From contig OZ234493.1 in NCBI GenBank assembly GCA_965153455.1, positions 14,374,213 to 14,438,212 on the forward strand: a DNA stretch of 64,000 nucleotides. Direction: 5' to 3'. The position numbers and the translations under genes were made by a program. The first letter of the stretch is position 1. Each line of letters opens with the position of its first letter. The notes under the pieces were generated by a model. The model did no database searches, was not told where the DNA came from, and was given only the letters and a program-made list of their open reading frames with translations. Positions 15,413-55,663 of this stretch are shown here, in pieces. The DNA comes from Sphagnum compactum. Lineage: Eukaryota.

Positions 15413-17102
15413 TAATTTGGTTGATGATAATTGAAATAAAACATTGATTCATTATTATGGTTGTTTATTGACATGAAATTTGAACTTTGCCAAATGTCAA
15501 ACCTGATGTTGCAAATTATATGTACCTATGTGTTTAAACTTCAACAATTTGTAATGGAAATTTAGAATTTCAATTAATTTTCTTTGAAAAAAATCCTTAT
15601 TTAAATCATCTATATGTAGGTATCAATATTTATGATGTCTTGAAGTTGTTGGCCCTAATTTTGTGGTGTCACATACTTAATAGGATTCAAAGAATACATT
15701 ATTTAAGCAATATCCATACTACCCAACAACGTTCTATGTATTTATAAATTGTATTTGGTCATTGGTGGTTTTATTTATCGGGGGTATACATTATAAACTA
15801 TCACTAAAATATGTAACTTTATATTTATTTATGGATTAAGAAATACAACAACCTTGGTTGGGTATTTGAGAAATTTATTATAATGATAATTAACTAATGC
15901 ATATTTGCATACCATGTAACACCTATAAAGTTGAAGTTACTCCCCATATTTTGGTTCATTTTCATTTTGTTAAATTTAATTGTTTTAAAAAAATTGTGAA
16001 CAACTTTGAATTTTCAAATTTTAAAGGAATGAAAAATAAATTTCAATTAACATGAACAATCACAAAAATTACAAAGGTAATACGATTTTACATATATTGA
16101 ATACATAACTTGTGAACAATTCAATCAAACATTTGTGGGTGTTAAATTATGAGTTAATGTAGGAGAATTTTGATTTCACAATTGTTGATCAATTATCATG
16201 AATCCACATTTTTTTTAAGTGTTCCAAAATTTTGTCACAATGTCACCTTTTTATATTTTTTGCCTAATCATTTTTTACCATGTAGAGACACAAAATGAAT
16301 GATAATGATGAATTTTAAAATTGTAATTGTCTAAAATATGGTATTCATAAAATATTTGACATTTTTTGATTCATTAATATTCATGGGGACCAAAATATAG
16401 GAAAAAAATTGCATTAAGGACTAGGTCATTTTCATCATAAATGGTACACCTCAAAGGATTTTCACCCTCATTAATTGTTAGAAATTTTAGCAATTTAAAA
16501 TATAAGAAAATCTTGGAAGCTTTTTTAAATTTAAACTTCATAAAAGTGTTCTATAATCTAAAATTTCCTTATAAATTTTTTTATAATGTAATTTTTATTG
16601 TGTAATTCATATTACATTTTAGCTTAATTTAATAAAAAAATACACTATGAACCATGAAGGTTTTTTCCTACATTGGAAGGTTGTACATACAAATGTTTTT
16701 CATAATAACCAACCTTTAGCCCTTGAACCTTTCTCAAATTTCATTTTTAGGAAATATTTCCATGAAATGTAAACCAACTTGCATGAAGGTACATTTGACA
16801 TTATGGTAAGCCAAAAAATAAGCCTTCTATGTTACTATTGTGACTAGTGATCATGCAACATGAAGACCCTTTCTAAACCATGAACTTGTCATAAAAGATG
16901 GATTGTACAAATCAAATTCTTAATACATTTGTTCCCTGAAATGATTTTTTATAGAATTAATATTCCTTGTCAAATGAAAAAAAAGGATATGCATATAAAA
17001 GTTTTAAACAAAAAAAAATTTATTCAAGTTCTCTTTTGACTCCTTTTGATTGCCAAGATTTTAATACTTCATTATAATCAAAATCCATATGTTGTGGAAC
17101 TA

Positions 17103-17277
17103 TGTTGTGAAGTGCAGTGTCGTGACGTTCGGTGTCGTAAGGGTGTAAATCCATAATAAACTCTATTGAATAGAAAGATTAAAACTAATCAAAGGTAAAA
17201 ACTAATCAACCAAAAAGATATGCACTCACATATATATACAATGCACAAGAGGAGGCTGAGATGAAATTCTCATGTAT
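17103..17277 (-). repeat. Terminal repeat block A (copy 2, 3' end of the element, 175 bp)
   Basis: Direct repeat of 17585-17759, about 15 mismatches in 175 bp by hand count, mostly transitions. Confidence 0.9.
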
Positions 17278-17582
17278 AATTAAATTGTAAAAATAAAATT
17301 AAAAAATGTAATGTATGTAAACGGTGGCCATGTAATAGCCGTGAGCATCTAAAAATCCAATCTGACTATGGAAGAAACTCTCCCTGACAAAGGAATTCTA
17401 AAAAAATTAATAAGAGAAGGGAAAAATTTGGCTTTTTATACAGCCTCAACAAGCTGAACAAGCCATAACCCTAAAACACCTAATAGCGCATATTAACCTA
17501 AGAACATACATTAACCCTAAAGGCATGATTGGCATGCCTGTAACTAGTCGTCATGTATGAGGCCATGCATATGGGCATGACA
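17278..17582 (-). repeat. Terminal repeat block B (copy 2, about 305 bp)
   Basis: Direct repeat of 25860-26173, e.g. shared gtatgtaaacggtggcc, atctgactatggaagaaactctccctgacaaaggaattct and gggcatgaca. Confidence 0.9.
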
Positions 17583-17584
17583 AT

Positions 17585-17759
17585 TGTCGTGACGTGTAGT
17601 GTCGTGACGTTCGGTGTCATAAGGGTGTAAATCCATAGTAAACTCTACTGAACAAAAAGACTAAAATTAATCAAAGGTAAAAACTAATCAACCAAAAAGA
17701 GATGCACGCACATATATATACAATGCATTAGAGAAGGCTGAGATGAAATTCTCATGTAT
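17585..17759 (-). repeat. Terminal repeat block A (copy 1, internal)
   Basis: Matches 17103-17277. On the element strand it is preceded by a G-tract (C-run at 17760-17767) and ends ...CACGACA. Confidence 0.9.
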
Positions 17760-17808
17760 CCCCCCCCAGACCTGAACCGGGAAAAACATGGCATGGTCTG
17801 AGCAAAAA

Positions 17809-17965
17809 TCAAGGTGCTGCAGGAGAACATGATGAACAGTACCAAATGCCAACGGGAACTTGAGTGAGTTTCGGCTTGAGGCAGAATAGACGGTATTCAC
17901 CATTACAATTATCGCAAAGCAACATCTGATCAACATCGTCTGTTCTCTGACATACCTGACATGGA
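17809..17965 (-). pseudogene. PHD finger at the C-terminus of the retroelement Pol
   Basis: CQVCQRTDDVDQMLLCDNCNGEYRLFCLKPKLTQVPVGIWYCSSC fits C4-H-C3 with the conserved W. The His position is Arg in this copy. Confidence 0.88.
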
Positions 17966-18049
17966 TAATCAAATGGAGGAATCCAAGTCAACGTGATGAT
18001 GGTAGGATCCAAGTTCAATAAGTGGCAAGGCGCACAATTTTTGGAGTGA

Positions 18050-19050
18050 TCCCAAATTGTGCATCCGTCAGTTCTTTACAACTCCAACACACTTGAAGGC
18101 CCGATCGCCTTAATCCTCAAGATAGTGCAATCGAAAGAAGTGTCTAGAATATCATTAGGTTGCCACTAAAAATACACAAAATCACCAACATCAAATTGTT
18201 TCACCTTAGGTTTATAACTGCCACCTCGTGTGTGTGCATATAGTAAGGTGTTTCGATGTTGTGCAATGGACAAGTTCTCCATGGCCATGGGCATAACCCT
18301 CCTGAATAGAGCTGTCCTCTTTGGAATGACCCTAGCCCAAGTGGCTGGGGAGTCCAAATCCACAACCTAGTCCATTTGAGCAATAATGGAAGAGGGTGGA
18401 ATGGGATGTCTCCCAAAAAGTAGAAAGTAAGGAGAGAAATGAAACAAAGAGGCGTGTTTGGACATCCTATAACCCATGGCGATGTAAGGTAGGGCCAGGT
18501 CCCAATCCTCTTTGTTCCTAGTGAGGCAAATCTTTCGCAGTCCCTTCTTGCATGTCTGAATGATCCTTTCTACAAGGCCATCAGCGTGGGGATGATCCAT
18601 TGAAGTTCAGCAATGGTCAATGAGAGCATGATCAAGTAGGTATTGGAATTTTCCTCTGAATTATGATCCCTGATCAGTAATGCACTCAGCATAAGCCCCA
18701 AAACTACTTAGGACCTGTTGTAAGAAAGCCTGGCTGGTGCTATGTGATGACTTGTCCGGCAGTGCAACAAGCTTAATCATAATCATGATGTAGACATTAC
18801 CCCTAGAGGTCTATGGTAACTCTTCAGCTAAATCACATGACCAACGATAGAACATGCCCTAAATAGGGAGTGGAGAAAGTGTGAGTTGTCGAGAGGAAAA
18901 GGAAGTTCTCACTCTATCACATTATTCACACCTAGCAATGATGTCTCGGACTTGAACATACATACCTCTCCAATGGTAATGAGGAGTGAGAAGGCTATAA
19001 GTACGCTTAACTCCAAAGTGTCAAAGCTCTGAGTGTACCTTTTGAATAAG
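18050..19050 (-). pseudogene. Retroelement DDE integrase (disrupted)
   Basis: HHCC region (HSEL*HFGVKRTY...WRGMY...C..C), core ITDQGS*FRG and HPHADGLVERIIQTCK...WDLALPYIAMGYR...SPYFLLFGRHP, then C-terminal KQFDVGDFVY and a GP motif. Confidence 0.88.
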
Positions 19051-19399
19051 ACCAGGCCATTCATGTGGTGGAGGAATCACTCTGTCGCCTTGTGGTAAGC
19101 ATCGGACGAGGTGATTGTCCCTCCATGAGTAGCATTTCGACCGTTGTTGTATGCGATCTCGTTGACTTGATGTAACTTGGGGAAGGTATTCCCCATGCTG
19201 AAGAAACTTCAAAGTGTCCAAGTCCTCCCATATATCCACAATGGGATGTTCAACCAGGTTACATTACAGTAGTGCAAGATAACTAAATGCATAAGATACA
19301 TGTACTGCTGAAATCTAGTCGAAGTTTTGCCTGGCTTTCGATAAATCAGGTAGTGAAGGGTCTCCGCGACGTGGTATCTGCGTTCTGATGTGTAATACC

Positions 19400-20710
19400 A
19401 AGTCGATGAATAACCTTGAACTCATACTTTTGAAGTATAAGCGCCCAACGAGCTAACTTACCAGTAAGCTTGTCGTTGGTCATCAACCACTTGATAAGCT
19501 GGTGGTCGATATACAAAGTGAACTTGGTGCCATAAAGATAGGGCTTGAAATGTATGACGGCCCATATAACAACAAAACACTCCCCCTCGTAAGAAGAGTA
19601 GTTGCTTTCAGCCTTGTTGTTGCTTTAGAATGCATAGGCGATAACATATTCCTTGCCTTCCTCATCAAGTTGGCCAAGAATAACACTAATACCAAGAGCA
19701 TTCCAGTTAGTGTGTAGAATGAAGACCTTGTTAAAATCAGGTCTTCTCAGAATGGGGAACTCTAAAAGCTTTTCCTTGAGTGTGTTGAAAGCTTCCTGAG
19801 CCTCTTCATTCCATGTCCAAGCAACATCCTTCTTTAACAATGCATAGAGAGGATGAGCAATAGTACTGAAGTCTTGGACATAAATCCTATAGTATTTACA
19901 TAGTTTGATGAAGCTCCTCAAAATGTGAACATTAGTAGGAGTGGGCATCTCCAAAATGGCTACTACTTTGGCCCAATGAGCCATAATACCATTTGGCAAA
20001 ATTATGTGGCCAAGGTAGACTACTGAAGTGACAACAAACTCACACTTTTTAGGATGGATTTTCATATTGACCTCGTGGAGCCTCTTGAATAACTCCTCAA
20101 GATGAGCCAAGTGCTGTAGGAGTCCCTTGCTATGCACTAGGATGTCATCTATGTAGCATTTCAAGAAATCTGCCCCTTCAAGAACCTAGTCCATGACTTG
20201 CTAAAAGAAGACATGTGCATATTTTAATCCAAAAGGCATCACAAGCCATTCCCACAACTTGTTGCTTCCATGGAATGTCGTTTTCTTACAATCCTTTGCA
20301 ACGAGCAGAATCTGGTTGAAGCTTGCCTTAGATCCACAATTGTGAAGATGTTTGAGTCTCCAATGTTATCAAATAAATTTTCAAGGATGGGCATGGGGTA
20401 CTTGTCCTGAGGTGTAACCAGGTTCAAAGGCTTATAATCCCCGTACATCCTTTTCTCAGTCCATAATCGAGTTGAATCCTTCTTTGTTGGCATTATTGTA
20501 GCGGCTACAAAATCAGAAGTTGATGGCTGAATGAGACCAGCCTCATGGAGCTTTTTTCATCTTTCATCTACTAGTTCCCATTCATGCTTGTTCAACCTAT
20601 GCCTCTTCCGATAGATGGGTGTTTCATGTGTAAGGTCTATAGAGAACTGCATGGTCTTACACCTACCTAAGTCTTTCATTGAGAATGCGAACACATTCTC
20701 ATACTCAATT
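19400..20710 (-). pseudogene. Reverse transcriptase and RNase H (disrupted), Ty3/Gypsy type
   Basis: RMYGDYKPLNLVTPQDKYPMP, VMPFGLK, YIDDILVHS, KKCEF...YLGH, LLKKDVAWTW; RNase H FILHTNWNALGISVILGQ...VIAYA; KLARWALILQ. Confidence 0.92.
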
Positions 20711-21064
20711 AGCAAGTCTGTGACCTGGTCTCTCTCCTTTTTGGTGAGCTAGTTCCCCATAACGAAAGGGTAGTTGGAAACACATGGAATGGAGTTAGAA
20801 AGTGTGTTTGAAGAACCTGGTGTATTGAGTTCTCCATTATCCAATTACGCAGATTTGTAAAAGGTTGTAATTGTTTCTCTAGAAATTGATGTACCTCCAG
20901 GTGTATCAGACACAACTTGAGTCAAATTACATGGTACCTCCTCCCCCCCAACATTAAGAGTGAAGTCTTGAGTGTTGAAGATAGGCAAGTGTACTTGGTC
21001 GGGGTGCCATGTAGTTGCATCGCCAGAACTACAAGCGGATTGAATCAGTGCTGGTGTTGTGTAC

Positions 21065-22030
21065 ATTTGAAAGAGTACACAGGTTACCAACAACCATGTA
21101 AGGGAGTTCAAGTCCATGCCTCTCCCCAGTAGAGTGTTACGTTCCAATCTAGTCACCTTGGTGTGACTAGTAGTGCTAGTTTGGAACCCCATAGCCCTTT
21201 CTCTTTCTTCTGGGCTTGGTTCATCCCAAGTTGTTGAAACATGACGATATACCAGGCCTGGTCCATCTCCCTGAAAGGCGTGTGCTCCTAGGAAGGAGAC
21301 GAAGGTGGGCCAAACACCTCTTGGTTTTCCTATTGTGTTCGTAGGAAACCAAAGAGGTTTCTTTTGCCTTGTAACTAGTTGGCAGGAACTCTGATCATCC
21401 AATATGTGAAAAACATGCAGATTGGGGTCTTTGATGGTGTATTTCATAACCAACTGCAAAACTGAAAATGGTGCAAGGTTGGTCCACCAGTTGCGTAGTC
21501 GGTGCGCATAGGAATCACATTGTGCCGCATTGAATAGGAGCGGTTCTCCAAGGTAATGCTTGACCAACGTGTAGTGCTCCAGGACTTTCTCCCTCTGGTC
21601 AAGCTGAGAAGGGTGTTCTCAATTACATAACCAAGCGTAGGAGAAATGGGTTGAGCCCAGTTGATCATGTCCATGAAGAGACTGTATCTTGTGTCACTCA
21701 AGCCTTCTCCAAATCCAGCCACTGAAAATCCTTGACACTCCCAACCTGAAATGATGAGGTCCACGGGGCCAAGTAATTCCATATGCTTCTTTTGAATTAG
21801 TTGAATGTTAGAAGGCAAGAAAGTGAAACTGGCCTTCCATGTGATGGTTGCAAATTGTTGTGGAAATCTGGCTGTGAGCTCCATCATTGTCGATGTCGCC
21901 ACTTACCTTGCAATAGGATTAATGTCTACGTAGAAATACCTCCGAACCACCATCCCAGACTATAACAGGGCTTCAAGACCTGTACCAATACCACCAAAGA
22001 ACTCTAGTAATGTAATCCCCTCCTTAGGCG
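21065..22030 (-). pseudogene. DNMT3-like C5 cytosine DNA methyltransferase domain embedded in Pol between protease and RT
   Basis: Motif I LLEFFGGIGTG, II YFYVDINPIA, IV DLIISGWECQGFSVAG, VI YVIEN, VIII DSYAHRLRNWWTNL, IX PEERERAMGF, X RLERNTLLGRGM. Canonical I-X order; two in-frame stops and one frameshift. Confidence 0.88.
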
Positions 22031-22379
22031 ATGTCCAGGTGATCAGCTGATGAAGTACTAACTTAATCGGTTTGGCATGGCTTTCCATGTTCTCAAAAGT
22101 AGACAGAGTTTTGACCAAGGGCTTGTGGGCTGCTTTGAACCTCTGTAAAACTTCTAGTCCCTGTTGAATGTCCGTAGGAACCACCCTCGGGCTTTCAGTA
22201 GCTTGGGCATAAGCTGTCTCCTCTTCATGTCCCTTTATCCACTCGTGGCTAGTTTATTGGATGTAGGAAATGGTGTGTGCTTCCTTGAGCATACAATGGT
22301 GAGCCATAGGACTATGCTTTCCATGTAAATCAAGAGGTATGTATCCCAAGTGGTGACCATCAGTCTCCCAATCCACTTG

Positions 22380-22720
22380 GTAGTACGCATGCTCGAACCA
22401 GTTGTCAATTGTGAAACCTGGTGGAAACAGGGCCTCTTGCCCAATGAGCACATCATAATTGGTGGCATTGGTGATTAAACATCTGACATGTAGGCAAAGC
22501 TCCTGATCTGTACCTTCATTGAAGTTAAGTGTAATCAAATCCGAGCTCTCCCGAAGTACCTCCTCTACATTCCCACTAGTAATGCGAATTTGCCACATAG
22601 ATTTTCGTAGTTTGGAGTCAAGCATGCCCATCTTCTTGGCGAATTCAACTCCAAGAATCACTAGTTGGGCACATGTATCAAGAAGTACCACTCTGAATGT
22701 ATGTCCTCCCACCTGGATTG
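22380..22720 (-). pseudogene. Retroelement aspartic protease
   Basis: IQVGGHTFRVVLLDTCAQLVILG (D-T-G-A-like site) and downstream YDVLIGQEAL, within ORF 22254-23180. Confidence 0.8.
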
Positions 22721-23894
22721 CTGACTTAGTATTGTTGACAATGGCAACCCTAGTGACGATGGAAGTTCTCTCACTAGGCTCCACCTTCGGAAATGAGCGA
22801 GAGACTTTGTGGAGAGAATGGCTATCTACAACGCCTTTGCTGAGTAACAAATCCATAAATGAGGTGTTCTTAGTTCCCTTTTGATATGTGAATGTATAAT
22901 CAAAGGTAGGAGAGCCCACTAATTTAGCCATGTTAAAACTAGTGACCAGATTACGAACGCCATTTGCAACATGTGAGCCAATCGAATGTCTCTCCAAGGT
23001 GTTGGATGGGACCCTTGTAACATGTGGATCAGGGATTGGCAGAGGACCTGATGTAGTGTTCAGGGTATCTTTTAGTACTACAATTATGTCCCTGGAGCTT
23101 AGCTTCAAATCTTGAAAACTAAACAACGGTGTACTCACAAGTTTTTGTGCCACTTCACGTATTTGAAGTTGGCACTCCATAAACTGATTAGTGGAAAATT
23201 GTGTGTTTTCCTGATGTACATGTATTCTTGGGGCACGAGAATTTGATACCTTAGCAGCTTATGGTGTAGTAATATCCTCCCCCCTCGCCAAAAGGTGCGT
23301 TCTTCTTGCGTGTTAAGAGGACGAAAAGATTATGGCATGACTGCTCGAGCTCCTCTAGCCTTGGTAATAGGACTTGAACCAAATGCGAGTCCAATAGTCT
23401 GAATTACCTACCTAGTGGCAGAAACTCTGGGTGCCACATTAGCTTTTGTGCCAGAAGTAAGAAGGGCAAAAAGAAGTGGCAAATTTTAGTGTGAGACTAA
23501 AATTGTGTGCACGGAAAAGAACATACTCCCCAACCATGGCATCATGTGAGAGGCCATAGAATGACCTAGAAGGTCCCTCTTGTGATCCTGAACCCCATAC
23601 AGGTTGGGCATGACTAGCTGGTTGGGAAGACTTGCTTTTTATATTAGCAAGTTGGGCCTTTAATGATTCGAGTTCATTTTGCAAAGTGTAAGCTTGAGCG
23701 ACATGGGCTTGTAGCACCTCCCTCTTGTCAGCATTTTGCTCTTTCTTCTTAGCATTCTTACTAGAATTACCCTTGGTGGGGAAAGCCTGAGTGGAAGGCT
23801 GAAGTGCCTTGGTTTTTGGTTGAGGGGCAGTGGAAGATGCTAATAGATTTTGCAGTGGTAATTGGAGTTATTTCCGTTCTGGGAACTTGGCAAA

Positions 23895-24869
23895 ACAAAC
23901 AACTTCCTGATGTTTTTCTTTCTCACAATAATCACAAAAGAGATCTTCGGAAGGAATGTTGCATTCAATAGCTTTGTGGGCAGGATTGCCACAATAGTTG
24001 CAAGAAGGTAGGATGGGTGCAACTGAGTGCATCGCTTTAGCCCTTGAAGAAGAATGTGATGATCTGGTTGTCGCAGCTAGTGGAGGCTAAGGCTTTGAAC
24101 ATGATGGAGGCCTCATAATACTGGCTTCATAGTGTGCATGAGCTAGTTCCAGCTTTTCAGAAATGTTGTACACATCCAACAAAGTGTACGAGTCTTTAAA
24201 TTCTGCAAAAACTCGTTGCAAAACCTACGCATGGACTGTCGAAGTACCTTTCAACGAACGAAGATATTGATGGGCAGCTTCTAGGTCTGTGATGCTCTAA
24301 GTATCCTCTTTGAACTTGAGAAGCCTCCTATAGACCATCTTGAGGGTTTCATCTTTCTGCTAAGAGAAGGTGGCGAGCTGCAAATTTTTTTCAGAATTCT
24401 TAACCGGAAATTTCAACTCAAGAAATCGAAAGAATTCCCCCACTAGATTAGCAAAAGCTGGTGCATCGATGGTGGGAGGAATGTTTATGGTAGCAGCAAT
24501 GAGTTGTTGAGGAAAAAAATTTACTAAATTAGGTACTAAATTTAGATTATTGGGCACAGTCCCATGATGTGCAATGGCAACCTGTAGTGCAGCTTGAGAG
24601 GTGGTGGCGATGGCTGTGGCATAAGCTAGATTGGGGATCTGAGTGACGCCCAAAATCCTCGGAGAATGTTGCTCATAAACATCTAATGCCTCATAGTGCA
24701 CATAATGGGCCAGTTGTTTGAATGCAAATGCCTCGGTGTAATCAGCGCCATACTTGAGCTCCAATTCACAAACCATAGTTGAGAAAGTTGCTTTGAATTC
24801 CCTCAAAGAAATGGTACCTGGCCTTCCGTTGAACTTCTCAATTCTCCCAAAGGAACTACTGACCTCCAT
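23895..24869 (-). pseudogene. Gag-like region with two CCHC zinc knuckles
   Basis: IEKFNGRPGTISLREFK Gag-like N-terminus; CNYCGNPAHKAIEC and CDYCEKEKHQEVVC (both CX2CX4HX4C) at about 24003-23895. Confidence 0.8.
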
Positions 24870-25859
24870 GGTGTATATGGGGTGTAGAGGTAACGGCTTG
24901 CAACGGAATATACGGTGATGGTATGAAAGCAAGTGCGGTAGCAGGTGTACCCCACTGATTAACCCCTCCAAATGGACTTTAATGTACCGTTGATGTAGTG
25001 TAACCTGAACTTGAATTCTTGGTAAGAGTTGTATTGAATGACGGTGGCGTTGTAGATGCTTTGATGGTACTATCGTGAAGATCATGAGTTCAAAGAAATC
25101 GGCTCAAAGGATGATACCTTGGCTCTGGCTGAGTGGTAGTGTTCTCATCATTCGAGGACATGGTGTTATCCCATGCCCCAAAATTTTGTAGCAATACAGA
25201 ACACTAGTTACAAAGTTCTAACACAACGTACGGTTTGAAGAATACGGTGCGTCGACAGGGATGAATAGCGATGGACAGACGTCTGTGGCCAGACGTCGGT
25301 GGACGAAAGGGGCTAAACGAACGAAACCAGACGGACGGACGTCGATTGCAACGGACGACGACGTAATAGATCGCCAATGAGCTCTCCAGCGATGGCGGGT
25401 GACGACGCGATGGACGCCGCGCTACAGATTGCCTGAGAGCTTTACAACAATGGCATGCAAAATTATTATTATTATATTCTTCTTGCTTGACACTGCACTT
25501 GGTTCTAACAACTTCAAGAGTCTTTAAGGCTTCCTCCACCTCCTCCTGTGTCTCTGCGCAAAAAAGAGTGTTATTTTCTCTTCTCGTGCTGTAGCACGCA
25601 CACACGCACGTGCGCTCAACACTTCTCGAGCGCCTCTTCGGAATAGCAGGAGTTTGTCCAATCTTCACTTCAAAAGCATTCAGGGGTGGCAACCTCATAC
25701 ATTGAGACACAACAATTGAAAGCTCGAGAGTAGTAACAACAACAACAACACCAGCAATAACAGCAACAACAACACTAGCAACAAAAGAAACCCAAGAAAC
25801 TCAAAGCCAAGAAAAATTTGTCGTTTTCAACATTAAGCAACAAAGAGCAGTTTTTCTAG

Positions 25860-26173
25860 AATTAAATTGAAAAGAAGGAAAAAAACATAGTGTATGTAAA
25901 CGGTGGCCGTGTAATAATCGCTGTGAGCATGTAGAAATTGAATCTGACTATGGAAGAAACTCTCCCTGACAAAGGAATTCTAGAAAACCTAACAAGAGAA
26001 GGGAAAAGCTTGGCCTTTTATATAGTCGTCAACAAGCTAAAATCCTAAATAAGCCATAACCCTAAAGCACATAATAATACACAATAACCTAAGAACATAC
26101 ATTAACCCTAAAGGCATGATTGGCATGCCCGTAATCGGCCATCATGTATGAGGCCATGTGTACGGGCATGACA
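25860..26173 (-). repeat. Terminal repeat block B (copy 1, 5' end of the element) with a putative TATA box
   Basis: Matches 17278-17582. Begins TG on the element strand and contains TATATAAAA on the minus strand near 26016-26024. Confidence 0.9.
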
Positions 26174-26989
26174 ACTAATTACAATCATAATAAGCCAATG
26201 TTGAAAGTTGATGTTATAATTTTGTTAAATGACATCTCAAAAATGTTTAATCCAACAAATCAAAACATTCAAAAGTTAATTGGACATGTGGATGATTATT
26301 GGGAAGGATTGGTACCACCTCATTTCAAGATTAGATATCATAATCATGTTAAACATGTTGTGGTTCACATGATTGGAAAAGATTGGTGGCACTTAATCAA
26401 GCTTATGCAAAATCATGTTAGAACATTGATAATAAATGATTAAAAGCAAGGGATTTAATTAGTTATAATTCATCATGCTCACCAAATATATAATTTTGAG
26501 TTTTGAAAATTATTATTCTATGATTGTATGGTTTTACCAATGTTATACATTATAATTAAATTAATATTGACTCAAAACTTGCAAATTTGGTTGATGATGT
26601 TATTTTGTAACTAAGATAATAACATCCATTTTTACAAAATATTATTTTGTGATCATTGTAATCAGTTAAGATACTATTTTGCAAATGATGCAACTAGCAA
26701 TTATATATATTTTTTAATTGTCTAAAATGTAATTAAACATGGATATAACATTTACAAATTGTAATTGATGTGCAATTACCATAATAATATTCATTGATTT
26801 TTTACATATTGGGATGCCATCTCATAATTATTCATGAAATCAAAATTAGCAAACCCTTCAAACACATTTACAATTGTTCATTGTAATATGCATTACACAA
26901 ATCTATTTCATCAATAATAACAAATAATTTAAGATTGAAACATTTGAATCATTGACATTATAGAAATCCAATGGGTTTCACATTGCTCA

Positions 26990-27950
26990 AGAACTTGTTA
27001 CCTTTTGAATAAAAAAGATTAACAAACTTTTAAGATTTTGCATATTTCTTCAAGTTGTGATCAAAAAATGCATATAAGCTTTGCAATACACTTTCTAGCT
27101 AATGCACTAAAAGGATATCCAAAAGGGTTATGAACAACCAAGTTGGTCTTATGAACAAAACAATGTCCCATAATACCAACAAGGGCCACTTTTCTTTGAA
27201 TTACATGGTCATTCTTGTTTAATGGCCTTGGAAAACACTACTATGTCACAACCCATGTTCATCAACTTCTCAAATAATTCTTCCAACTCCATGCCACCAA
27301 ACTCAAACATGCATTTAAGCATGAAAGAAAAAATGTTGTTAAAGGTGGCATAAAGACCTATAGTTTCCACATAGAGTATGGGAATCCTAGATTCCACTTT
27401 TGGAAAATGTACAAATGGATTGAAATCCATTATACATTGTTCATTGCAGTCACTTCATCTACATTTGTTGCAATAAAAGTGGCAACAATAAATGTTATCA
27501 TGGTAACCTCCAATAAAATAACATGTATCACCTATATCATCCCCCAACCAAATCAATCAATCCAAACTTTTAACTTCATGGTCTATTGTAGGACATCCAT
27601 GGGAAAGAATATGATAAATGACAACCAATTGGACATTTTTTCTTTTCTAATCATAGATATTGGCTTAGAGTCAATCCAAGATAGAGGGTCGATCATGTGT
27701 AGTTTGATTATGTTCACTTTGAACATGCATTGAGTTTTTGTTGGAATAAAATGTGCAAACATCAATGCCAAGCATTGAAACCTTGGCTTTTTGATGGCCC
27801 TAGTGTTTCAACAAGTTGTCAAGTTTTGGAATCAAAGTTTTATGCCTACCTTCAACAAATGTGCATATTTTGCATTGGACTTGGTATATTTCACCTTTGT
27901 TATCCAAAATAGATTTACCCATGGTAGTTTAGCAATCCTAGTGTTTTAAA
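26990..27950 (-). mobile_element. Highly degraded hAT-like (ZNF862-type) transposase relic
   Basis: Minus-strand fragments FIATNVDEVTAM..WISIHLY, FGGMELEELFEKLMNMGCD..VFQG and GHCFVHKTNL (CxxH motif) resemble the hAT catalytic core; many stops. Confidence 0.55.
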
Positions 27951-31174: not shown

Positions 31175-32230
31175 TGAAGCAATGCAAGATTCTTGAGCAT
31201 ATTGAATGGGATGCAATAGGAACATCTGCCCATAAAAAATTTGAAGCAAATGCAAAGGGTTCTTGAGCAGATTGAAGAGCATCCAATATGAAGATCTGGC
31301 CATAGAGAAATTGAAACAATAATGCAGAATTCTTGAGCAGATTGAAGTTAATGCAATATGGAAGATCTGGCCATAGAGAAATTGAAACAAGAATGCAGGA
31401 TTCTTGAGCAAGATTGAAGTTCATGCAATATGGAAGATCTGGCCATAGAGAAATTGAAACAATAATGCAGGATTCTTGAGCAGATTGAAGAGGATGCAAT
31501 ATGAAGACCTGGCCATAGAGAATTGAAGCAATTGAAACAACAATGCCAGATTCTTGAGCAGATTGAAGAGGATGCAATATGAAGATCTGGCCATAGAGAA
31601 ATCGAAACAATCCAGGATTCTTGAACAGATTGAAGTTAATGCAATTTGGAAGATCTGGCAATAGAGAAATTGAAACAATAATGCAGGATTCTTGAGCAGA
31701 TTAAAGGGAATGCAATAAGAAGATCTGCCGAGAGACAATTGAACCAATTGAACCAAGAGGATGCAATATGAAGATCTGGCCATAGAGAAATTGAAACAAT
31801 CCAGGATTCTTGAACAGATTGAAGTTAATGCAATTTGGAAGATCTGGCAATAGAGAAAGTGAAACAATAATGCAGGATTCTTGAGCAGATTGAAGGGAAT
31901 GCAATAAGAAGATCTGCCGAGAGACAATTGAACCAATTGAACGAATAACTGATCTAGAAATTGAAACAATAATGCAGGATTCTTGAGCAGATTGAAAGGG
32001 ATGCAATAGGAAGATCTGCCCATAGAGAATTGAAGCAGATGCAGAATTGTTGAGCAGATTGAAGGGCATGCAGCAGAAAGATGTACCCATAGAGAAATGG
32101 AAACAAATGCAGGATTCTTGAGCCAGAAAGAAAAAGATGGTGCAATAGGAAGATCTGCCGTTAGTGAAATGCAAACAATAATGCAAGATTCTTGAGCAGA
32201 TTGAAGGGGATGATTCTTGAGCAGATTCTA
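31175..32230. repeat. Tandem satellite of about 70 bp (about 15 units) with higher-order duplication
   Basis: Unit approx. gattcttgagcagattgaag(aggat/ttaat)gcaatatg(g)aagatctggccatagagaaattgaaacaataatgca, with a period of 70-71 at 31261/31331/31402. Confidence 0.92.
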
Positions 32231-53091: not shown

Positions 53092-54696
53092 TTAAAATTT
53101 GTATACATCTGGAATCTTCACTGGGTACTGAGAAATACAATGGGCCCAGGGTGATTTCTGTGAGGGCTCTATGGTGCGTAGGGCCTGCCAAACAGCACTA
53201 TTGCATTTAAATCCACTACCAAAAGCAATTTGCCAGATTCTATTGCCTTTCCGCATCCTTCCTTTTGCCTCAGTATACGCCAACTCATACCAAATAGAGG
53301 ATGAGGATGTATTCCCAAATCTGTGAAGAGTCATACGTGAAGCTTCACAGTGCTCTGGCATAAGCTGCAGGTTCTTCTCAAGCTCATCAATTACAGCTCG
53401 TCCTCCTGCATGAATGCAGAAATGTTCAAACGCAAGTTTGAAATCAGGGATGTAAGGTTTCACCTTGAAGTTGAAAACCTTGCGAGCAACAAGGACTGCA
53501 AAAAACAAGATCTGTTCAGAGAGAGGGAGTACAAGAGGGCCCAGAGTAGTAATGTTTGTCTTCAGGGCATCCCCTGCAATTGCCATGAGTTCTTTAGAGA
53601 GTGACACTCCCATATATCCTGTCTCATCTTGCTCCTGATAAACACATTGGTAGCACTTGTCATCAGCTCCCTTATGAGTCCTCACAACATGGTTGAGTTT
53701 GTACTTGGATCTTGCCCTGTCTCTTCTCTTGTTGGAGAGGAGAATCGCAGCTCCACCTAGTCGGAACAGGCAGTTTGGAATGAGCATGGACTTGCGATTC
53801 CCAAAGTACCAGTTCTGTGTGATGTTTTCTGTGCTCACAACTATGGCATATGTACCACCATGAACTTGCAAAATGTCCTGCGCAAGATCAATTGAGATCA
53901 CACCGGCGCTACATCCCATTCCTCCCAAATTGAAAGTCCGGATGTTACCCCGCATTTTGTACTTGTTAACAATCATGGCTGACAGAGATGGCGTTGGATT
54001 GAAGAGAGAACAATTCACAACAAGCACACCAATGTCCTTTGGCTTCACCTTTGTTTTCTCAAACAGCTCATCCAAGCAACCAAACATAACAGCTTCTGCC
54101 TCTTCCCGTGCTAGCTTCATGCTTGGGGATGGTGGAATGGTGTGCACAGCAGGAGGAAGATAGGTATCTTCTCCCAGCCCAGATCTCTCCAAGATCTTTT
54201 GCTGGAACTCGATGCTCTTCTCATCAAACAACCCAGACATCTTTGTGTGCTCTAAGAAATAATTCATGGAAACCTTTAATGGCTCTTGTGCCAAGTAACA
54301 TGCGTAATCAACGAGGTAGATGGGTCTCGGCCTCGACATCACATACACTGTCAAGAAGAAGACGAGAAGCACCGAACAGGTGACCAAGCTGAGAAGATCA
54401 AATTTCAGATTCTCCCATAGCTGCCACATATCATCGGGTTTCAGCCGACCCACCTCCAATAGGACTCCGAGCAGCAGGGGGATGAAGAGCAAAGTCACAA
54501 GATGGGTGATGAGATAATGGTAGCCAAGTTTCACATATTTCAAGTTCACTGATTGCAAGAAATCAGGAAGACGTCTCCGTGTGCTGATGTGAACTGAAAA
54601 GATGCGCCCCGAAGAAGAAGAAGAAGAACTCATGGAGCTTGCTCTTTCAGGAGCGGGAGAAGGATTCATACCTCCTCCTTCTCCACCCTTTGCCAT
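53092..54696 (-). CDS. KCS: 3-ketoacyl-CoA synthase (FAE1/KCS family, very-long-chain fatty acid elongase condensing enzyme), intronless, 534 aa from MAKGG
   Basis: [20 protein letters not shown], two N-terminal TM helices, [10 protein letters not shown] (catalytic Cys), [24 protein letters not shown] and [16 protein letters not shown]. Confidence 0.97.
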
Positions 54697-55663
54697 AGTG
54701 TTGCACACAAAGTTTCGACACACCCTTTTGCCCTCCTCTTGTTGAGTTTCCACACTCGCTTTTCTTGAGAGACCCAACAATTCCTTTTCATGCAGGAAAA
54801 CACCATGCGAGAGAGAGAGAGAGCGAGAGAGAGAGAGAGGTCTAGAGACCAAAAAATGGGGCAACACCCAAATCCCCCTTTCCTTACCCCCCGAGAAGAG
54901 ACTGTGGAAGAAGCAGAAGACCCACCAAAGTATTCTTCAACTCAGGAGGATAGCAGACGAGGGAGGAAGGAGTCGAGACCCAAACAGTCAGAGACGACGC
55001 TACTGACAAAAGAGTGAGGAACCTTTCCAGGAGGCCGGAGGAGAAGCAACAGCAGCTGTAAAGCAGCGAGACTTTCCTACTTGAACTCCACTCCAAGGCT
55101 GATGGTGATGGGGGCACCACGAGAGAGTGAGAGAGAGAAAAGTGTAAAAACTCTTTGATTGCCTGCAAATGATGAACAGCAATTACACCATCACAACATA
55201 CAAAAGCTTGGCAAGAGTTCCTCCCCAACCAACAACTACTTCTGACAACACCCGACAAGGTAGCTTAACATCACATGCCTACAGTTCTGACAAAAACCTC
55301 ATATTCTCTCATTCTCTCATTCTGTCTCTGTCTCTGTCTCTCGGATACTGACTACAACACAGTCCCACCTCATTTTGAGAAAACTCTCTTTCCAACAACA
55401 ACCACAGCTAAGGACAAGAAAGGTGCAATCAATCTTCTTTCTTTGTAGAAATGCCTTTTTCTCCCCAAAAAGGGAACAACACGATGGATGACACACGAAC
55501 TTAGGTACCAATAGGCAGTGTTCACAGAAGAAAACAAACAAACAAACACTAGTAGTAGCTCCAAGACTAGAAGAGCTCCAAGTAAGAGACTACCAACTCA
55601 CTCCCATCAAGTTCTACAACCGACGACCAGTTTTGCAATTACACCAAAACCCACTTTTCATCG

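Follow-up and report, generated by a model that had tools for sequence, protein, structure and literature searches.

A B…A-B-A arrangement of terminal repeats in a DNMT3-carrying Ty3/Gypsy-type family of mosses with a DDE integrase

An element in the stretch of moss DNA analysed here (64 kb; the window) is an old, dead Ty3/Gypsy-type copy of the green-plant 'Gypsy-DNMT3' lineage whose two repeat modules stand in the order B…A-B-A. This layout is a property of the family and not a local rearrangement: the normal integrated form is B - internal - A·NN·B|A, where NN is a 2-nt spacer and the bar marks the B2|A2 joint. The explanation that we prefer, with a probability of roughly 55%, is that a Gypsy-DNMT3 element makes a self-primed cDNA with A·NN·B LTRs, that the B end of this cDNA is joined to the A start, and that integrase cuts the internal junction.

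Results

Layout of the element

The element lies on the minus strand; coordinates are those of the plus strand. A repeat search and direct reading gave the element-strand order TSD, B1, gag-pol, G-run, A1, AT, B2, A2, TSD, and the B…A-B-A order described in an earlier note proved correct to the base (repeat search, blastn, direct reading). In the repeat search and blastn, A2 (17103-17277) and A1 (17585-17759) were 91% identical over 175 nt, and B2 (about 17279-17582) and B1 (25861-26173) 82% identical in a gapped alignment; blastn and nhmmer found no further copy of A or B elsewhere in the 64-kb window. Read directly, TG at 26173-26172 opens B1 and CA at 17104-17103 closes A2, and both ends of the element are flanked by TAGT (ACTA on the plus strand; 26177-26174 and 17102-17099). 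The CA that ends A1 (17586-17585) is followed by AT (17584-17583) and by the TG that opens B2 (17582-17581). The module borders given earlier hold for A1, A2, TG, CA, AT and the TSDs; the B end had been put at 25860, and comparison across the family places it at 25861, which leaves position 17278, a T that separates B2 from A2, as an extra base at the joint. The features are, in element order:

26174-26177, minus: upstream copy of the 4-bp TSD, TAGT on the element strand and ACTA on the plus strand (read directly; TSDs tested family-wide)
25861-26173, minus: B1, 5' terminal repeat module, opening with TGTCATGCC (repeat search, blastn, nhmmer)
about 26018-26024, minus: TATA box of B1, which also contains two TTAGGGTTA motifs
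25979-25989, minus: box in B1 complementary to the primer site
25849-25860, minus: candidate minus-strand primer binding site TCTAGAAAAACT, adjoining the 3' side of B1 (complementary to the predicted RNA 5' end; self-priming type)
23663-25103, minus: gag-like region, decayed, with two CCHC zinc knuckles in the ORF at 23868-24086 (ORF translations; tblastn to the related locus L066)
22254-23258, minus: aspartic protease region (gag-asp_proteas, E=4e-4, below the curated cut-off; 80% identity to L066)
21444-22253, minus: C5 cytosine DNA methyltransferase domain, DNMT3-like, within pol and broken by a frameshift (PF00145, E=5e-9)
19346-20748, minus: reverse transcriptase and RNase H, frameshifted (RVT_1, RT_RNaseH_2, RT_RNaseH; tblastn to L066)
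18076-19498, minus: integrase, decayed, zinc-binding H2C2 and DDE core (tblastn, 77-81% to L066 pieces with Integrase_H2C2 and rve)
17809-18075, minus: C-terminal PHD finger (PF00628, E=5e-10) and pol stop codon (TGA 17811-17809, read directly)
17760-17773, minus: polypurine tract AGGTCTGGGGGGGG, touching the first base of A1 (read directly)
17585-17759, minus: A1, internal copy of module A, starting ATACATGAG and ending …CACGACA (repeat search, blastn, nhmmer)
17581-17586, minus: internal junction CA-AT-TG (A end, 2-nt spacer, B start), with ACAATTGT palindromic; candidate integrase attachment site
17279-17582, minus: B2, internal copy of module B (repeat search, blastn, nhmmer)
17278, minus: extra T at the B2|A2 joint, the same as the first base of the primer site
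17103-17277, minus: A2, 3' terminal copy of module A, with the closing CA (repeat search, direct reading, blastn, nhmmer)
17099-17102, minus: downstream copy of the 4-bp TSD, TAGT on the element strand (read directly; family-wide TSD test)

Coding region and enzyme

The coding order is gag, PR, DNMT3-like methyltransferase, RT, RH, DDE integrase and PHD finger. The gag-like region of the window element had no Pfam gag match, and its integrase fragments by themselves had no Pfam match. L066, the best relative, encodes Integrase_H2C2, rve and PHD, and the window copy is 81% identical to it over the integrase region (tblastn); no tyrosine recombinase was found in the five pol pieces scanned. Judged by the L066 domains and this identity, the enzyme of the family is a DDE integrase, as the earlier note had read it. 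Among solved structures, DNMT3A/3B chains come closest to the L066 homolog of the methyltransferase domain. Every copy found is decayed, and even L066 has three in-frame stops in pol. Related polyproteins also occur under the names Marchantia, Closterium, Haematococcus and Chromochloris.

Recurrence of the layout and single insertion

We compared the element with 80 related loci from moss-associated metagenomes, restricting counts to independent ends. All 33 of the 5' ends consist of flank, B and then the primer site; B followed by A, as expected of the conventional (B+A)…(B+A) copies against which the earlier note had weighed its reading, was present at none of them. The 38 3' ends comprise 22 with A·NN·B|A, each preceded by the polypurine tract, 15 with a single A and one with A·B. 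Two of the 22 are damaged, one retaining only the tail of A2 (L007) and one being interrupted (L062). At no related locus was the polypurine tract followed by B. The layout persists down to 68% protein identity (L067). In a tree, single-A copies are interspersed among A·B|A copies, and one single-A locus (L009) agrees with an A·B|A locus (L060) both in its flanks and in its TSD (CCAA).

Among 19 independent copies with both ends, a 4-bp TSD was perfect in 11, matched at three of four positions in six and was absent in two; mismatched flank pairs gave 0.15% perfect and 4.9% three-of-four matches. The recurrence of B…A-B-A at independent loci with their own 4-bp duplications is far beyond chance. 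Within a copy, divergence between A1 and A2 runs in parallel with that between B1 and B2 (0.955/0.918 in L066, 0.806/0.800 in L076). Among 13 B1 sequences, the best match of B2 was the B1 of its own copy in nine of 13 cases; the own A partner ranked first for A2 in only four of 13, and within-copy A1/A2 identity (0.81-0.96) barely exceeds the between-copy mean of 0.867. The ends of the element are imperfect inverted repeats of each other (TGTCATGCC and TGTCGTGAC). The earlier view of the whole unit as one insertion by a DDE enzyme, bounded by TG…CA and a 4-bp duplication, is supported.

Priming signals

Of 41 independent A1-type copies, 36 have at least five consecutive G immediately before module A, and TCTAGAAAAACT adjoins the B end at 31 of 33 independent 5' ends. 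Its exact complement, AGTTTTTCTAGA, occurs 32-35 nt past the TATA box. The exact complementarity extends over at least 10 nt in 15 of 31 copies and over 12 nt in 10 of 31, and is worn down to 9 nt in the window copy; a 12-mer complement arose in one of 20000 shuffles of B. The minimum-energy fold paired the 5' end with the primer site in all six copies folded; five of them form a 15-bp duplex, with z from -4.0 to -5.5, and the window copy an interrupted 14-bp duplex (z -2.7). In L022 a two-sided change (…AAAAATT with AATTTTT…) retains 12 bp, and in L026 and L067 TTTAGA pairs with TCTAAA. These features suggest that the minus strand is self-primed at the 12-15 nt site next to B1; the putative transcription start is placed solely by its distance from the TATA box.

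With a G-run at A1 and a site of the self-priming type at B1, reverse transcription should make A·NN·B LTRs. The integrase-type TG…CA ends fall within this predicted unit, at the ACA-NN-TGT junction. Hence, the inserted copy would be a circular permutation of the predicted cDNA.

Internal junction and B2|A2 joint

Of the 20 A·B|A copies in the alignment, 19 preserve the 2-nt gap between the A end and the B start at the internal junction, and 10 depart from the modal length at the B2|A2 joint. Among the 16 copies without subfamily extensions of the B end, the joint is exact in nine, longer by one base in three, and shorter by one base in two and by two bases in two. Each of the three longer joints has gained a T, the base with which the primer site begins, and the -2 form fits use of an AT common to the B end and the A start. 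Ranked among the 8-column windows of the same alignment, the joint reaches only the 95th percentile for length variation, and its context is AT-rich and slippage-prone (…AAT|ATAC…), so the lengths may reflect later mutation instead of imprecise joining.

Discussion

How the element is built, that this build recurs, the TSDs, the enzyme and where the priming signals lie are direct observations, and we found no account in print of how a split-repeat, integrase-bearing element replicates. From the sequences we infer the RNA ends, the form of the cDNA, the linking of its ends and cutting by integrase at the internal junction, as follows. Transcription would begin about 32-35 nt downstream of the B1 TATA box, and the first 12 or so nt of the RNA would fold onto the complementary site next to B1 and prime the minus strand, as in Tf1. 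The plus strand would be primed by the G-run just ahead of A1, and ordinary strand transfers would yield a linear cDNA, (A·NN·B)-internal-(A·NN·B), with the TG of B and the CA of A inside the LTR. The B end of the cDNA would then become linked to the A start; a two-LTR circle, a template jump from one end to the other, or end-joining by the host once the DNA is integrated could each bring this about. In the upstream LTR, integrase would cleave the junction behind both CA dinucleotides, at positions offset by 2 nt, leaving recessed CA-3'OH ends with 2-nt 5' overhangs, exactly those of processed retroviral DNA, and insertion with a 4-bp stagger would give B-internal-A·NN·B|A. Later recombination between A1 and A2 would account, at least sometimes, for the single-A copies (B-internal-A), and that between B1 and B2 for solo B|A units. 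Integrases can cut palindromic LTR-LTR junctions, as described for HIV-1 (PMC1905944) and foamy virus (PMC1180852). A symmetric two-LTR circle predicts the permutation B|A·NN·B-internal-A at equal frequency, yet it was seen at none of 33 5' ends. An asymmetry must be assumed in the circle route; for example, the upstream LTR might be completed first, or the self-primer might be retained on the downstream end.

Alternatively, reverse transcription could directly yield a linear cDNA with the B start and the A end as termini. Integrase would then use ordinary linear ends, end-joining and internal cleavage would be unnecessary, and a normal linear substrate would be expected to leave TG…CA ends and 4-bp TSDs. 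The missing permutation needs no added assumption here, and if synthesis were primed just past A1 and ran off where B2 begins, B-internal-A (15 of 38 3' ends) would result directly. We nevertheless regard this as unlikely. It requires unconventional priming or extra jumps, for instance with A as an additional terminal redundancy or with primers located at the A·NN·B junction, whereas the conserved G-run stands at the A start and not the B start, and the self-complementary primer site at the B end and not the A end. A tRNA-type primer site begins TGG; the NN-TGTCATGCC… past the A end shows no complementarity to the 3' end of a tRNA, and no purine-rich stretch precedes the B start. We could write no standard series of strand transfers that places A after B at the right end, and B-internal-A copies, having no terminal redundancy, cannot be the replicating form.

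Less likely still, and in our view improbable, is replication of the DIRS/PAT kind in which an integrase takes over from the recombinase. The transcript would start in B1 and reach into A2, the missing ends would be copied from the internal A·NN·B junction (compare the ICR of DIRS-1), and a circle or extended molecule would be resolved at the junction. The topology is the same as the A1-internal-B1A2B2 of PAT, Ngaro and TOC (PMC4157794, PMC7192593), a comparison also made by de Mendoza et al. (PMC5890265), and an RNA with B2|A at its 3' end only would account for the missing permutation. However, with the primer site after B1 and the polypurine tract before A1, standard synthesis would never copy the RNA tail 3' of B2, and a further, unseen priming site would be required. 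A templated B2|A2 joint should also be inherited, yet close relatives differ (0 in L002 and +1 in L033; +1 in the window copy and -1 in L076). Finally, TSDs are present and the five pol pieces scanned contain no tyrosine recombinase.

That the locus is a one-off rearrangement, autointegration product or assembly artefact of a conventional B+A-LTR element, favoured solely by such elements being the rule and by the age and decay of the window copy, is refuted by recurrence of the layout in independent related loci (33 of 33 5' and 22 of 38 3' ends, in contigs of several assemblies) with neither B-then-A 5' ends nor polypurine tract-then-B among them, and contigs of run X1, possibly the source of the window and so not independent, span both insertion junctions with zero differences.

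For the preferred route by end-joining and internal cleavage, known systems offer parallels to its parts. In retroviral two-LTR circles, integrase cuts a palindromic CA…TG joint internally and regenerates integration-competent ends, but that joint connects two LTRs and arises as a by-product (PMC1905944, PMC1180852). In the moss element the corresponding joint, with 2 nt as its spacer, falls within the reverse-transcription LTR and would serve as an obligatory substrate. The retroviral joint has a 4-nt spacer, and circles as integration precursor are an older idea. Tf1/sushi elements and the Tcn1 chromoviruses of mosses self-prime reverse transcription, so self-priming is already known from mosses (PMC6317226). 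Like them, the moss element has no tRNA-type primer site and has, on sequence grounds, a 12-15 nt site after the 5' repeat complementary to the predicted RNA 5' end; unlike it, they have two complete LTRs, and a chromodomain where it has a PHD finger (PMC6317226).

PAT, Ngaro and TOC elements likewise have one module 5' and other-module/first-module/other-module 3', with the internal junction equal to the joint of the two termini (PMC4157794, PMC7192593). They use a tyrosine recombinase, in contrast to the DDE integrase (H2C2 and rve domains), TG…CA ends, 4-bp TSDs and Gypsy-type RNase H (RT_RNaseH_2) of the moss element. DIRS and PAT also contain a DNA methyltransferase domain. It sits after RH there, whereas that of the moss element is a C5, DNMT3-like enzyme ahead of RT. 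The DIRS-class methyltransferase is Dam-like (PMC5890265).

By its published description, another of the closest counterparts is KnitGypsy-Dnmt3 of Klebsormidium nitens, which has a DNMT3-like cytosine methyltransferase inside a Gypsy-type pol, repeats in a DIRS arrangement (PMC5890265) and a green-plant host, an alga instead of a moss; a C-terminal PHD finger is noted for the moss element. The DIRS-like repeats are mentioned in the legend to Fig. 4c (de Mendoza et al. 2018, PMC5890265), whose one sentence on them gives no TSDs, end sequences, priming sites or mechanism. 'Gypsy-DNMT3' of streptophytes is named as a lineage in a preprint (10.64898/2026.05.21.726589). Since these repeats had been noted and the window element belongs to the DNMT3-carrying Gypsy lineage, the suggestion that the combination was undescribed does not stand: it had been noted once, in an alga, and left unexplained in that account, and the window element is a moss member of the same lineage. 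Overall, the B…A-B-A arrangement, met throughout the copies examined, suggests that the integrase of this family inserts a rearranged, end-joined DNA copy.

Results

Anatomy of the window element

The earlier note, made from the sequence alone, described an element with split direct repeats in the order B...A-B-A in place of LTRs and with a DDE integrase. We located the repeat modules by repeat search and blastn, which matched the positions in that note exactly and confirmed the layout (coordinates are those of the plus strand).

Features of the window element (repeat modules from repeat search and blastn)
17103-17277, minus strand: A2
about 17279-17582, minus strand: B2
17585-17759, minus strand: A1
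17809-18075, minus strand: PHD finger, after the integrase
21444-22253, minus strand: DNMT3-like C5 cytosine methyltransferase, between protease and reverse transcriptase (RT)
25861-26173, minus strand: B1

In the same searches, A1 and A2 were 91% identical across 175 nt, and B1 and B2 82% identical in a gapped alignment. No further copy of A or B was found in the 64-kb window by repeat search, blastn or profile scan. On the minus strand, the 5' part of the element reads TAGT (the target-site duplication, TSD), TGTCATGCC... B1 ...CAATTTAAT, TCTAGAAAAACT..., gag-pol and the pol stop, and the 3' part reads AGGTCTGGGGGGGG, ATACATGAG... A1 ...CACGACA, AT, TGTCATGCC... B2 ...CAATTTAAT, T, ATACATGAG... 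A2 ...CACAACA, TAGT. The TG...CA ends, the 4-bp duplication (ACTA on the plus strand) and the AT between A1 and B2 can all be read directly here.

Each B carries two TTAGGGTTA motifs, which resemble the plant telomere repeat or telo-box, upstream of the TATA box (26057-26111 and 17466-17520, minus strand); the window contains 9 such motifs versus 0.56 expected. They lie within a stretch of ~19-nt tandem units, the number of which differs in some B1/B2 pairs. Inside this stretch B1 and B2 differ in length by 18-20 nt in some copies, which we read as changes in repeat number.

Coding region and lineage

Between its repeats, the window element carries a polyprotein gene that is decayed and frameshifted at many places. 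Pfam detected RVT_1, RT_RNaseH_2 and RT_RNaseH, a C5 DNA methylase domain (E=5e-9), a PHD finger at the C-terminus of pol (E=5e-10) and, as a weak match, an aspartic protease. The integrase of the window copy is so fragmented that it gave no Pfam match, and it was therefore assigned via a homolog. A protein search with a 257-aa query from after the methylase core found close relatives, one of them under a Sphagnum name. We scanned contigs of moss-associated metagenomes with an 820-aa relative, P0001, and took the best 80 of 586 confirmed matches as loci L001-L080. In L066, the best-preserved copy among them, pol is a single frame with three stops and contains DNA_methylase, RVT_1, RT_RNaseH_2, Integrase_H2C2, rve and PHD domains. 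The window is 77-85% identical to the L066 pieces over the whole length and 81% identical over the integrase-PHD piece, which bears out the DDE integrase of the earlier note. Phage_integrase, the tyrosine recombinase domain, had no match in the five L066 pol pieces scanned.

Across the window and L066, the pol order protease region - RVT_1 - RT_RNaseH_2/RT_RNaseH - Integrase_H2C2 - rve is of the Ty3/Gypsy type, with the DNA_methylase domain inserted between protease and RT. The methylase is of the DNMT3 type, the 29 top hits of 31 solved-chain hits being DNMT3A, 3B or 3C (best E=3.9e-8). Polyproteins with an equal domain set were found under the names Marchantia, Closterium, Haematococcus, Chromochloris and Monoraphidium, and none under the name Klebsormidium. 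A 455-aa protein labelled cytosine methyltransferase (P0006), on a 2.4-kb contig of a Candidatus Obscuribacterales metagenome-assembled genome, shares 41% identity with the element's post-methylase region; either the protein is a bacterial relative of the domain that was captured, or the contig is from a plant and was mis-binned.

Elsewhere in the window, an intact 614-aa ORF (53092-54936, minus strand) has a FAE1/type III polyketide synthase-like domain (E=3e-142). It is a 3-ketoacyl-CoA synthase (KCS/FAE1) gene, ordinary in land plants, and fits a land-plant genome. A 189-nt unit is repeated three times in tandem (69-98% identity) at 31350-31943, within a 268-aa minus-strand ORF that has no Pfam match.

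Recurrence of the layout

Profiles of A and B were built, all loci and the window were scanned, and every boundary was printed and the ends classed; loci at one and the same place were merged (8 pairs). The 38 rows with a 5' end reduced to 33 independent sites, all of which read flank/B/TCTAGAAAAAC-type sequence (a slash marks a joint, NN the 2-nt spacer). An A after or before the B was present at 0 of these 33 sites. We counted 3' ends only where at least 700 nt of downstream sequence was available, giving 39 rows and 38 sites. L023 was left out because its downstream sequence is too short, and L026 and L047, each with a single A and no recognisable G-run, were left unclassed.

Classes of 3' end at 38 independent sites
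G-run/A·NN·B/A: 22 of 38; 20 intact, L007 with A2 reduced to its final ~30 nt, L062 interrupted
A·NN·B without A2: 1 of 38; L012
Single A, then flank: 15 of 38; in addition L009, at the site of L060

The layout is likewise found in L067, the most distant of the loci (68% protein identity). Conventional (B+A)...(B+A) copies, the outcome that the earlier note had set against its own reading, were absent among the loci. The Ty3/Gypsy hallmark of two complete, identical LTRs is likewise missing, since 3' ends are A·NN·B/A or A only and 5' ends are B without A, and split direct repeats of the A1-internal-B1A2B2 topology are present in the family. With B first at 33/33 5' sites and A·NN·B/A at 22/38 3' sites, the B...A-B-A order recurs beyond the window, and the chance that this locus is a one-off rearrangement or an artefact is negligible.

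The family is very abundant in sequencing runs of three organisms. Contigs of one run, X1, which is possibly from the same source as the window, span both insertion junctions with zero differences. Among the 15 joints listed from four runs (with 101 further joints beyond those), no contig bridged an empty target site; the joints listed were B/A and A·NN·B joints of paralogs. The pol region (window 16300-27000) was matched by 833 contigs of the moss metatranscriptome X20, mostly at 90-95% identity. They could reflect transcription of family members or DNA carry-over, and because DNA can occur in such libraries we left them uncounted as expression.

One insertion per copy

We compared the 4 bases preceding the TG of the first B with the 4 bases following the CA of the last A. 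Seven of 26 rows were left out: the loci L002, L030, L031, L033 and L054 do not reach the 5' end, so that B2 had been taken as the first B, and in L007 and L076 A2 is damaged. The remaining 19 independent copies matched at 4/4 bases in 11 cases and at 3/4 in 6, with no matching duplication in 2, versus 0.15% (4/4) and 4.9% (3/4) for mismatched flank pairs. Hence, the whole unit is a single insertion with TG...CA termini and a 4-bp TSD, which agrees with a Ty3/Gypsy element and its DDE integrase. Perfect TSDs flank both B...A·B/A copies (window, L022, L032, L050, L059 and L066) and single-A copies (L009, L020, L040, L044 and L048), and their sequences vary among copies. The two without a matching duplication, L017 and L011 (0 and 1 of 4 bases), are complete copies, which might have arisen by recombination between different copies.

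Within each copy, the A1/A2 and B1/B2 identities rise and fall together. Set against 13 B1 sequences, B2 was closest to the B1 of its own copy in 9 of 13 copies; the corresponding count for A is only 4 of 13, a weaker ranking because A is more uniform. At a threshold of at least 9/13, no column separated the first copies of A or B from the second by a fixed difference. The substitutions that separate repeat copies are chiefly transitions, the pattern expected of methylated DNA.

L009, a single-A copy, and L060, with A·B/A, have common flanks and a common CCAA duplication, and L009 therefore goes back to a full-form copy that lost B2 and one A. The downstream flanks of the two are 96-97% identical and the elements 88.8%, so the body of the element evolves far more quickly than the DNA around it. 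In a tree built from A1 and the final 1.5 kb of pol, single-A copies are scattered, as expected if they arise by a recurrent secondary event, and some may have been inserted as such. One solo B/A unit, a form for which the earlier note had suggested a search, was seen at 14043-14500 of L059, in reverse orientation inside the PHD-finger coding region of that copy; it has a TGGT duplication and one additional base at the B/A joint.

Candidate priming signals on different modules

The candidate plus-strand primer is the conserved AGGTCTGGGGGGGG, which ends at the base preceding A1. A G-run of at least 5 precedes A1 in 36 of 41 independent A1-type copies, the other five having degenerate versions, and lies ~50 nt past the pol stop, the position of a polypurine tract. 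As candidate minus-strand primer site, TCTAGAAAAACT starts right after the 5' B in 31 of 33 independent 5' ends (degenerate in the other two). It adjoins B also in subfamilies with 5-17 nt extra at the B end, in which the 3' B carries an identical extension ahead of A2.

An exact complement, AGTTTTTCTAGA, sits in B 32-35 nt past the TATA box, a distance from which we predict that the RNA starts at this box. The longest exact complement to the primer site is at least 10 nt in 15/31 copies and 12 nt in 10/31; the 12-mer arose by chance in 1/20000 shuffles of B. Minimum-energy folds of the RNA from box to site paired the two in 6/6 copies folded. Five copies have a predicted duplex of 15 bp (z -4.0 to -5.5); that of the window copy has 14 bp and is interrupted (z -2.7). 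In L022, changes on both sides keep 12 bp, and in L026 and L067 TTTAGA pairs with TCTAAA.

A primer site of the tRNA type begins with TGG. Neither the sequence after B1 nor that after A1 does, and we rejected such a site at both places. We also rejected a poly(A) signal in B, AATAAG downstream of the box in L066, which is unconserved in other copies. Self-priming Tf1 elements have a like arrangement, with about 11 nt at the RNA 5' end (predicted here) complementary to a site after the 5' repeat, and PMC6317226 gives self-priming as a prediction for the Tcn1 clade of mosses. The candidate primer site thus adjoins the end of B, and the polypurine tract the start of A. Together they bound A·NN·B, and the signal-bounded unit is therefore permuted relative to the integrated ends.

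A proposed route to the integrated form

During reverse transcription of LTR elements, the LTR becomes the sequence from the base after the polypurine tract through the base before the primer site. With the former at the A start and the latter at the B end, the predicted LTR is therefore A·NN·B, and the linear cDNA would be (A·NN·B)-internal-(A·NN·B). Integrase-type ends lie inside A·NN·B, at ...ACA-NN-TGT..., the spacer being AC, GC, AT, GT or TA by copy and exactly 2 nt in 19/20 aligned copies. The integrated B-internal-A·NN·B/A consists of the parts of this expected cDNA with the left A shifted to the right end, and we infer that it is a circular permutation of the cDNA. Such a permutation requires that the B end be joined to the A start and the DNA be opened at the junction inside the upstream LTR. 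Cuts after both CA, on opposite strands and 2 nt apart, would leave both CA-3'OH ends recessed behind 5' overhangs of 2 nt. Retroviral DNA after 3' processing has ends of exactly this kind. Palindromic LTR-LTR junctions are cut by retroviral integrases, according to PMC1905944 and PMC1180852. We give this end-joining plus internal-cleavage route a probability of about 0.55.

In 16 copies without subfamily extensions the B2/A2 joint is exact in 9, +1 in 3, -1 in 2 and -2 in 2. In 3/3 the additional base is T, with which the primer site also begins, and the -2 form corresponds to use of the AT common to the B end and the A start. The joint differs between close relatives, a hint that it may be made anew at each insertion. 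It is a hint only, because the non-modal length in 10/20 copies ranks at the 95th percentile, below the maximum, when compared with other windows of that alignment, and the context is prone to slippage; we dropped the variability as proof of de novo joining for this percentile.

A symmetric two-LTR circle predicts B/A·NN·B-internal-A in half of insertions, and this form was seen in 0 of 33 5' ends; the substrate is therefore asymmetric, or the route is a different one. For asymmetry, the upstream LTR might be finished first, the upstream junction might integrate first with host end-joining afterwards, or the self-primer might stay on the downstream end. The Tf1 primer is not removed, according to the title of a paper cited in PMC6317226.

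As a different route, reverse transcription could itself yield a linear cDNA that starts with B and ends with A, which would fit the uniform 5' ends; we regard it as unlikely, the priming signals bounding A·NN·B instead. Less probable still is a DIRS-like templated restoration. DIRS, PAT and Ngaro elements are not known to have the TSDs of staggered cuts. They share with the moss element the topology of split direct repeats, defined as A1-internal-B1A2B2 in PMC4157794. However, they encode a tyrosine recombinase and insert conservatively and site-specifically, whereas the moss element has Integrase_H2C2 and rve, leaves Phage_integrase unmatched in five L066 pieces and is flanked by varied 4-bp TSDs.

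Discussion

Two full LTRs define an LTR retrotransposon, a consequence of the way in which reverse transcription and the integrase work together. The family described here departs from the two-LTR rule and retains the standard enzymes. The unit set by its priming signals and the unit set by its integrase ends are circular permutations of each other.

The earlier note interpreted the element as a possibly undescribed replication strategy. The layout, the single insertion and the DDE integrase hold, but the combination had been seen before: the Fig. 4c legend of de Mendoza et al. 2018 (PMC5890265) describes KnitGypsy-Dnmt3 of Klebsormidium as having DIRS-like repeats and Gypsy domains. Both the DNMT3-type C5 methyltransferase in a Gypsy pol and the DIRS-like repeats are also present in the moss element. 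Among the papers searched, the name KnitGypsy occurred in that one alone, and no title or abstract was on an element combining split direct repeats, integrase and Gypsy. A 2026 preprint (10.64898/2026.05.21.726589) names 'streptophytes (Gypsy-DNMT3)'. The window element is a new moss member of a known, barely described kind. Gypsy-7a_cRei of Chlamydomonas has 'LTR subparts' and a PHD finger and may or may not be similar.

Only the existence of the arrangement, in one alga, was already known. New here are the termini and 4-bp duplications with statistics and the 2-nt palindromic internal junction. Also new are the single-A and solo forms as secondary products, the predicted division of polypurine tract and self-priming site between the two modules, and the proposal of a permuted provirus. 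For Klebsormidium, the supplements of PMC5890265 may hold part of this. Read depth suggests that the lineage is very abundant in bryophyte and algal genomes. If the proposed route is true, the normal substrate of the integrase would be an internal palindromic attachment site, and the family would offer a concrete test of how split-repeat elements (DIRS, PAT, Ngaro) replicate and originated. Software that finds paired LTRs would miss or mis-annotate the lineage in these genomes.

A broader reading, which we hold tentatively and think rather doubtful, concerns an ancient green-plant lineage reaching from a charophyte alga to moss and liverwort. Its DDE integrase would routinely use end-joined (circular or concatemeric) cDNA and cut an LTR-internal attachment site, and Gypsy-like elements would have evolved split repeats either before the tyrosine recombinase of DIRS/PAT/Ngaro or separately from it. 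If so, this mode of integration would realize in nature the abandoned idea of circles as integration precursors, and the junction-based replication logic would also be independent of, or older than, the tyrosine recombinase. The DNA methyltransferase found both in this lineage and in the DIRS/PAT/Ngaro class may belong to the same strategy, and the lineage would link the two great classes of LTR-type retroelements as a living intermediate.
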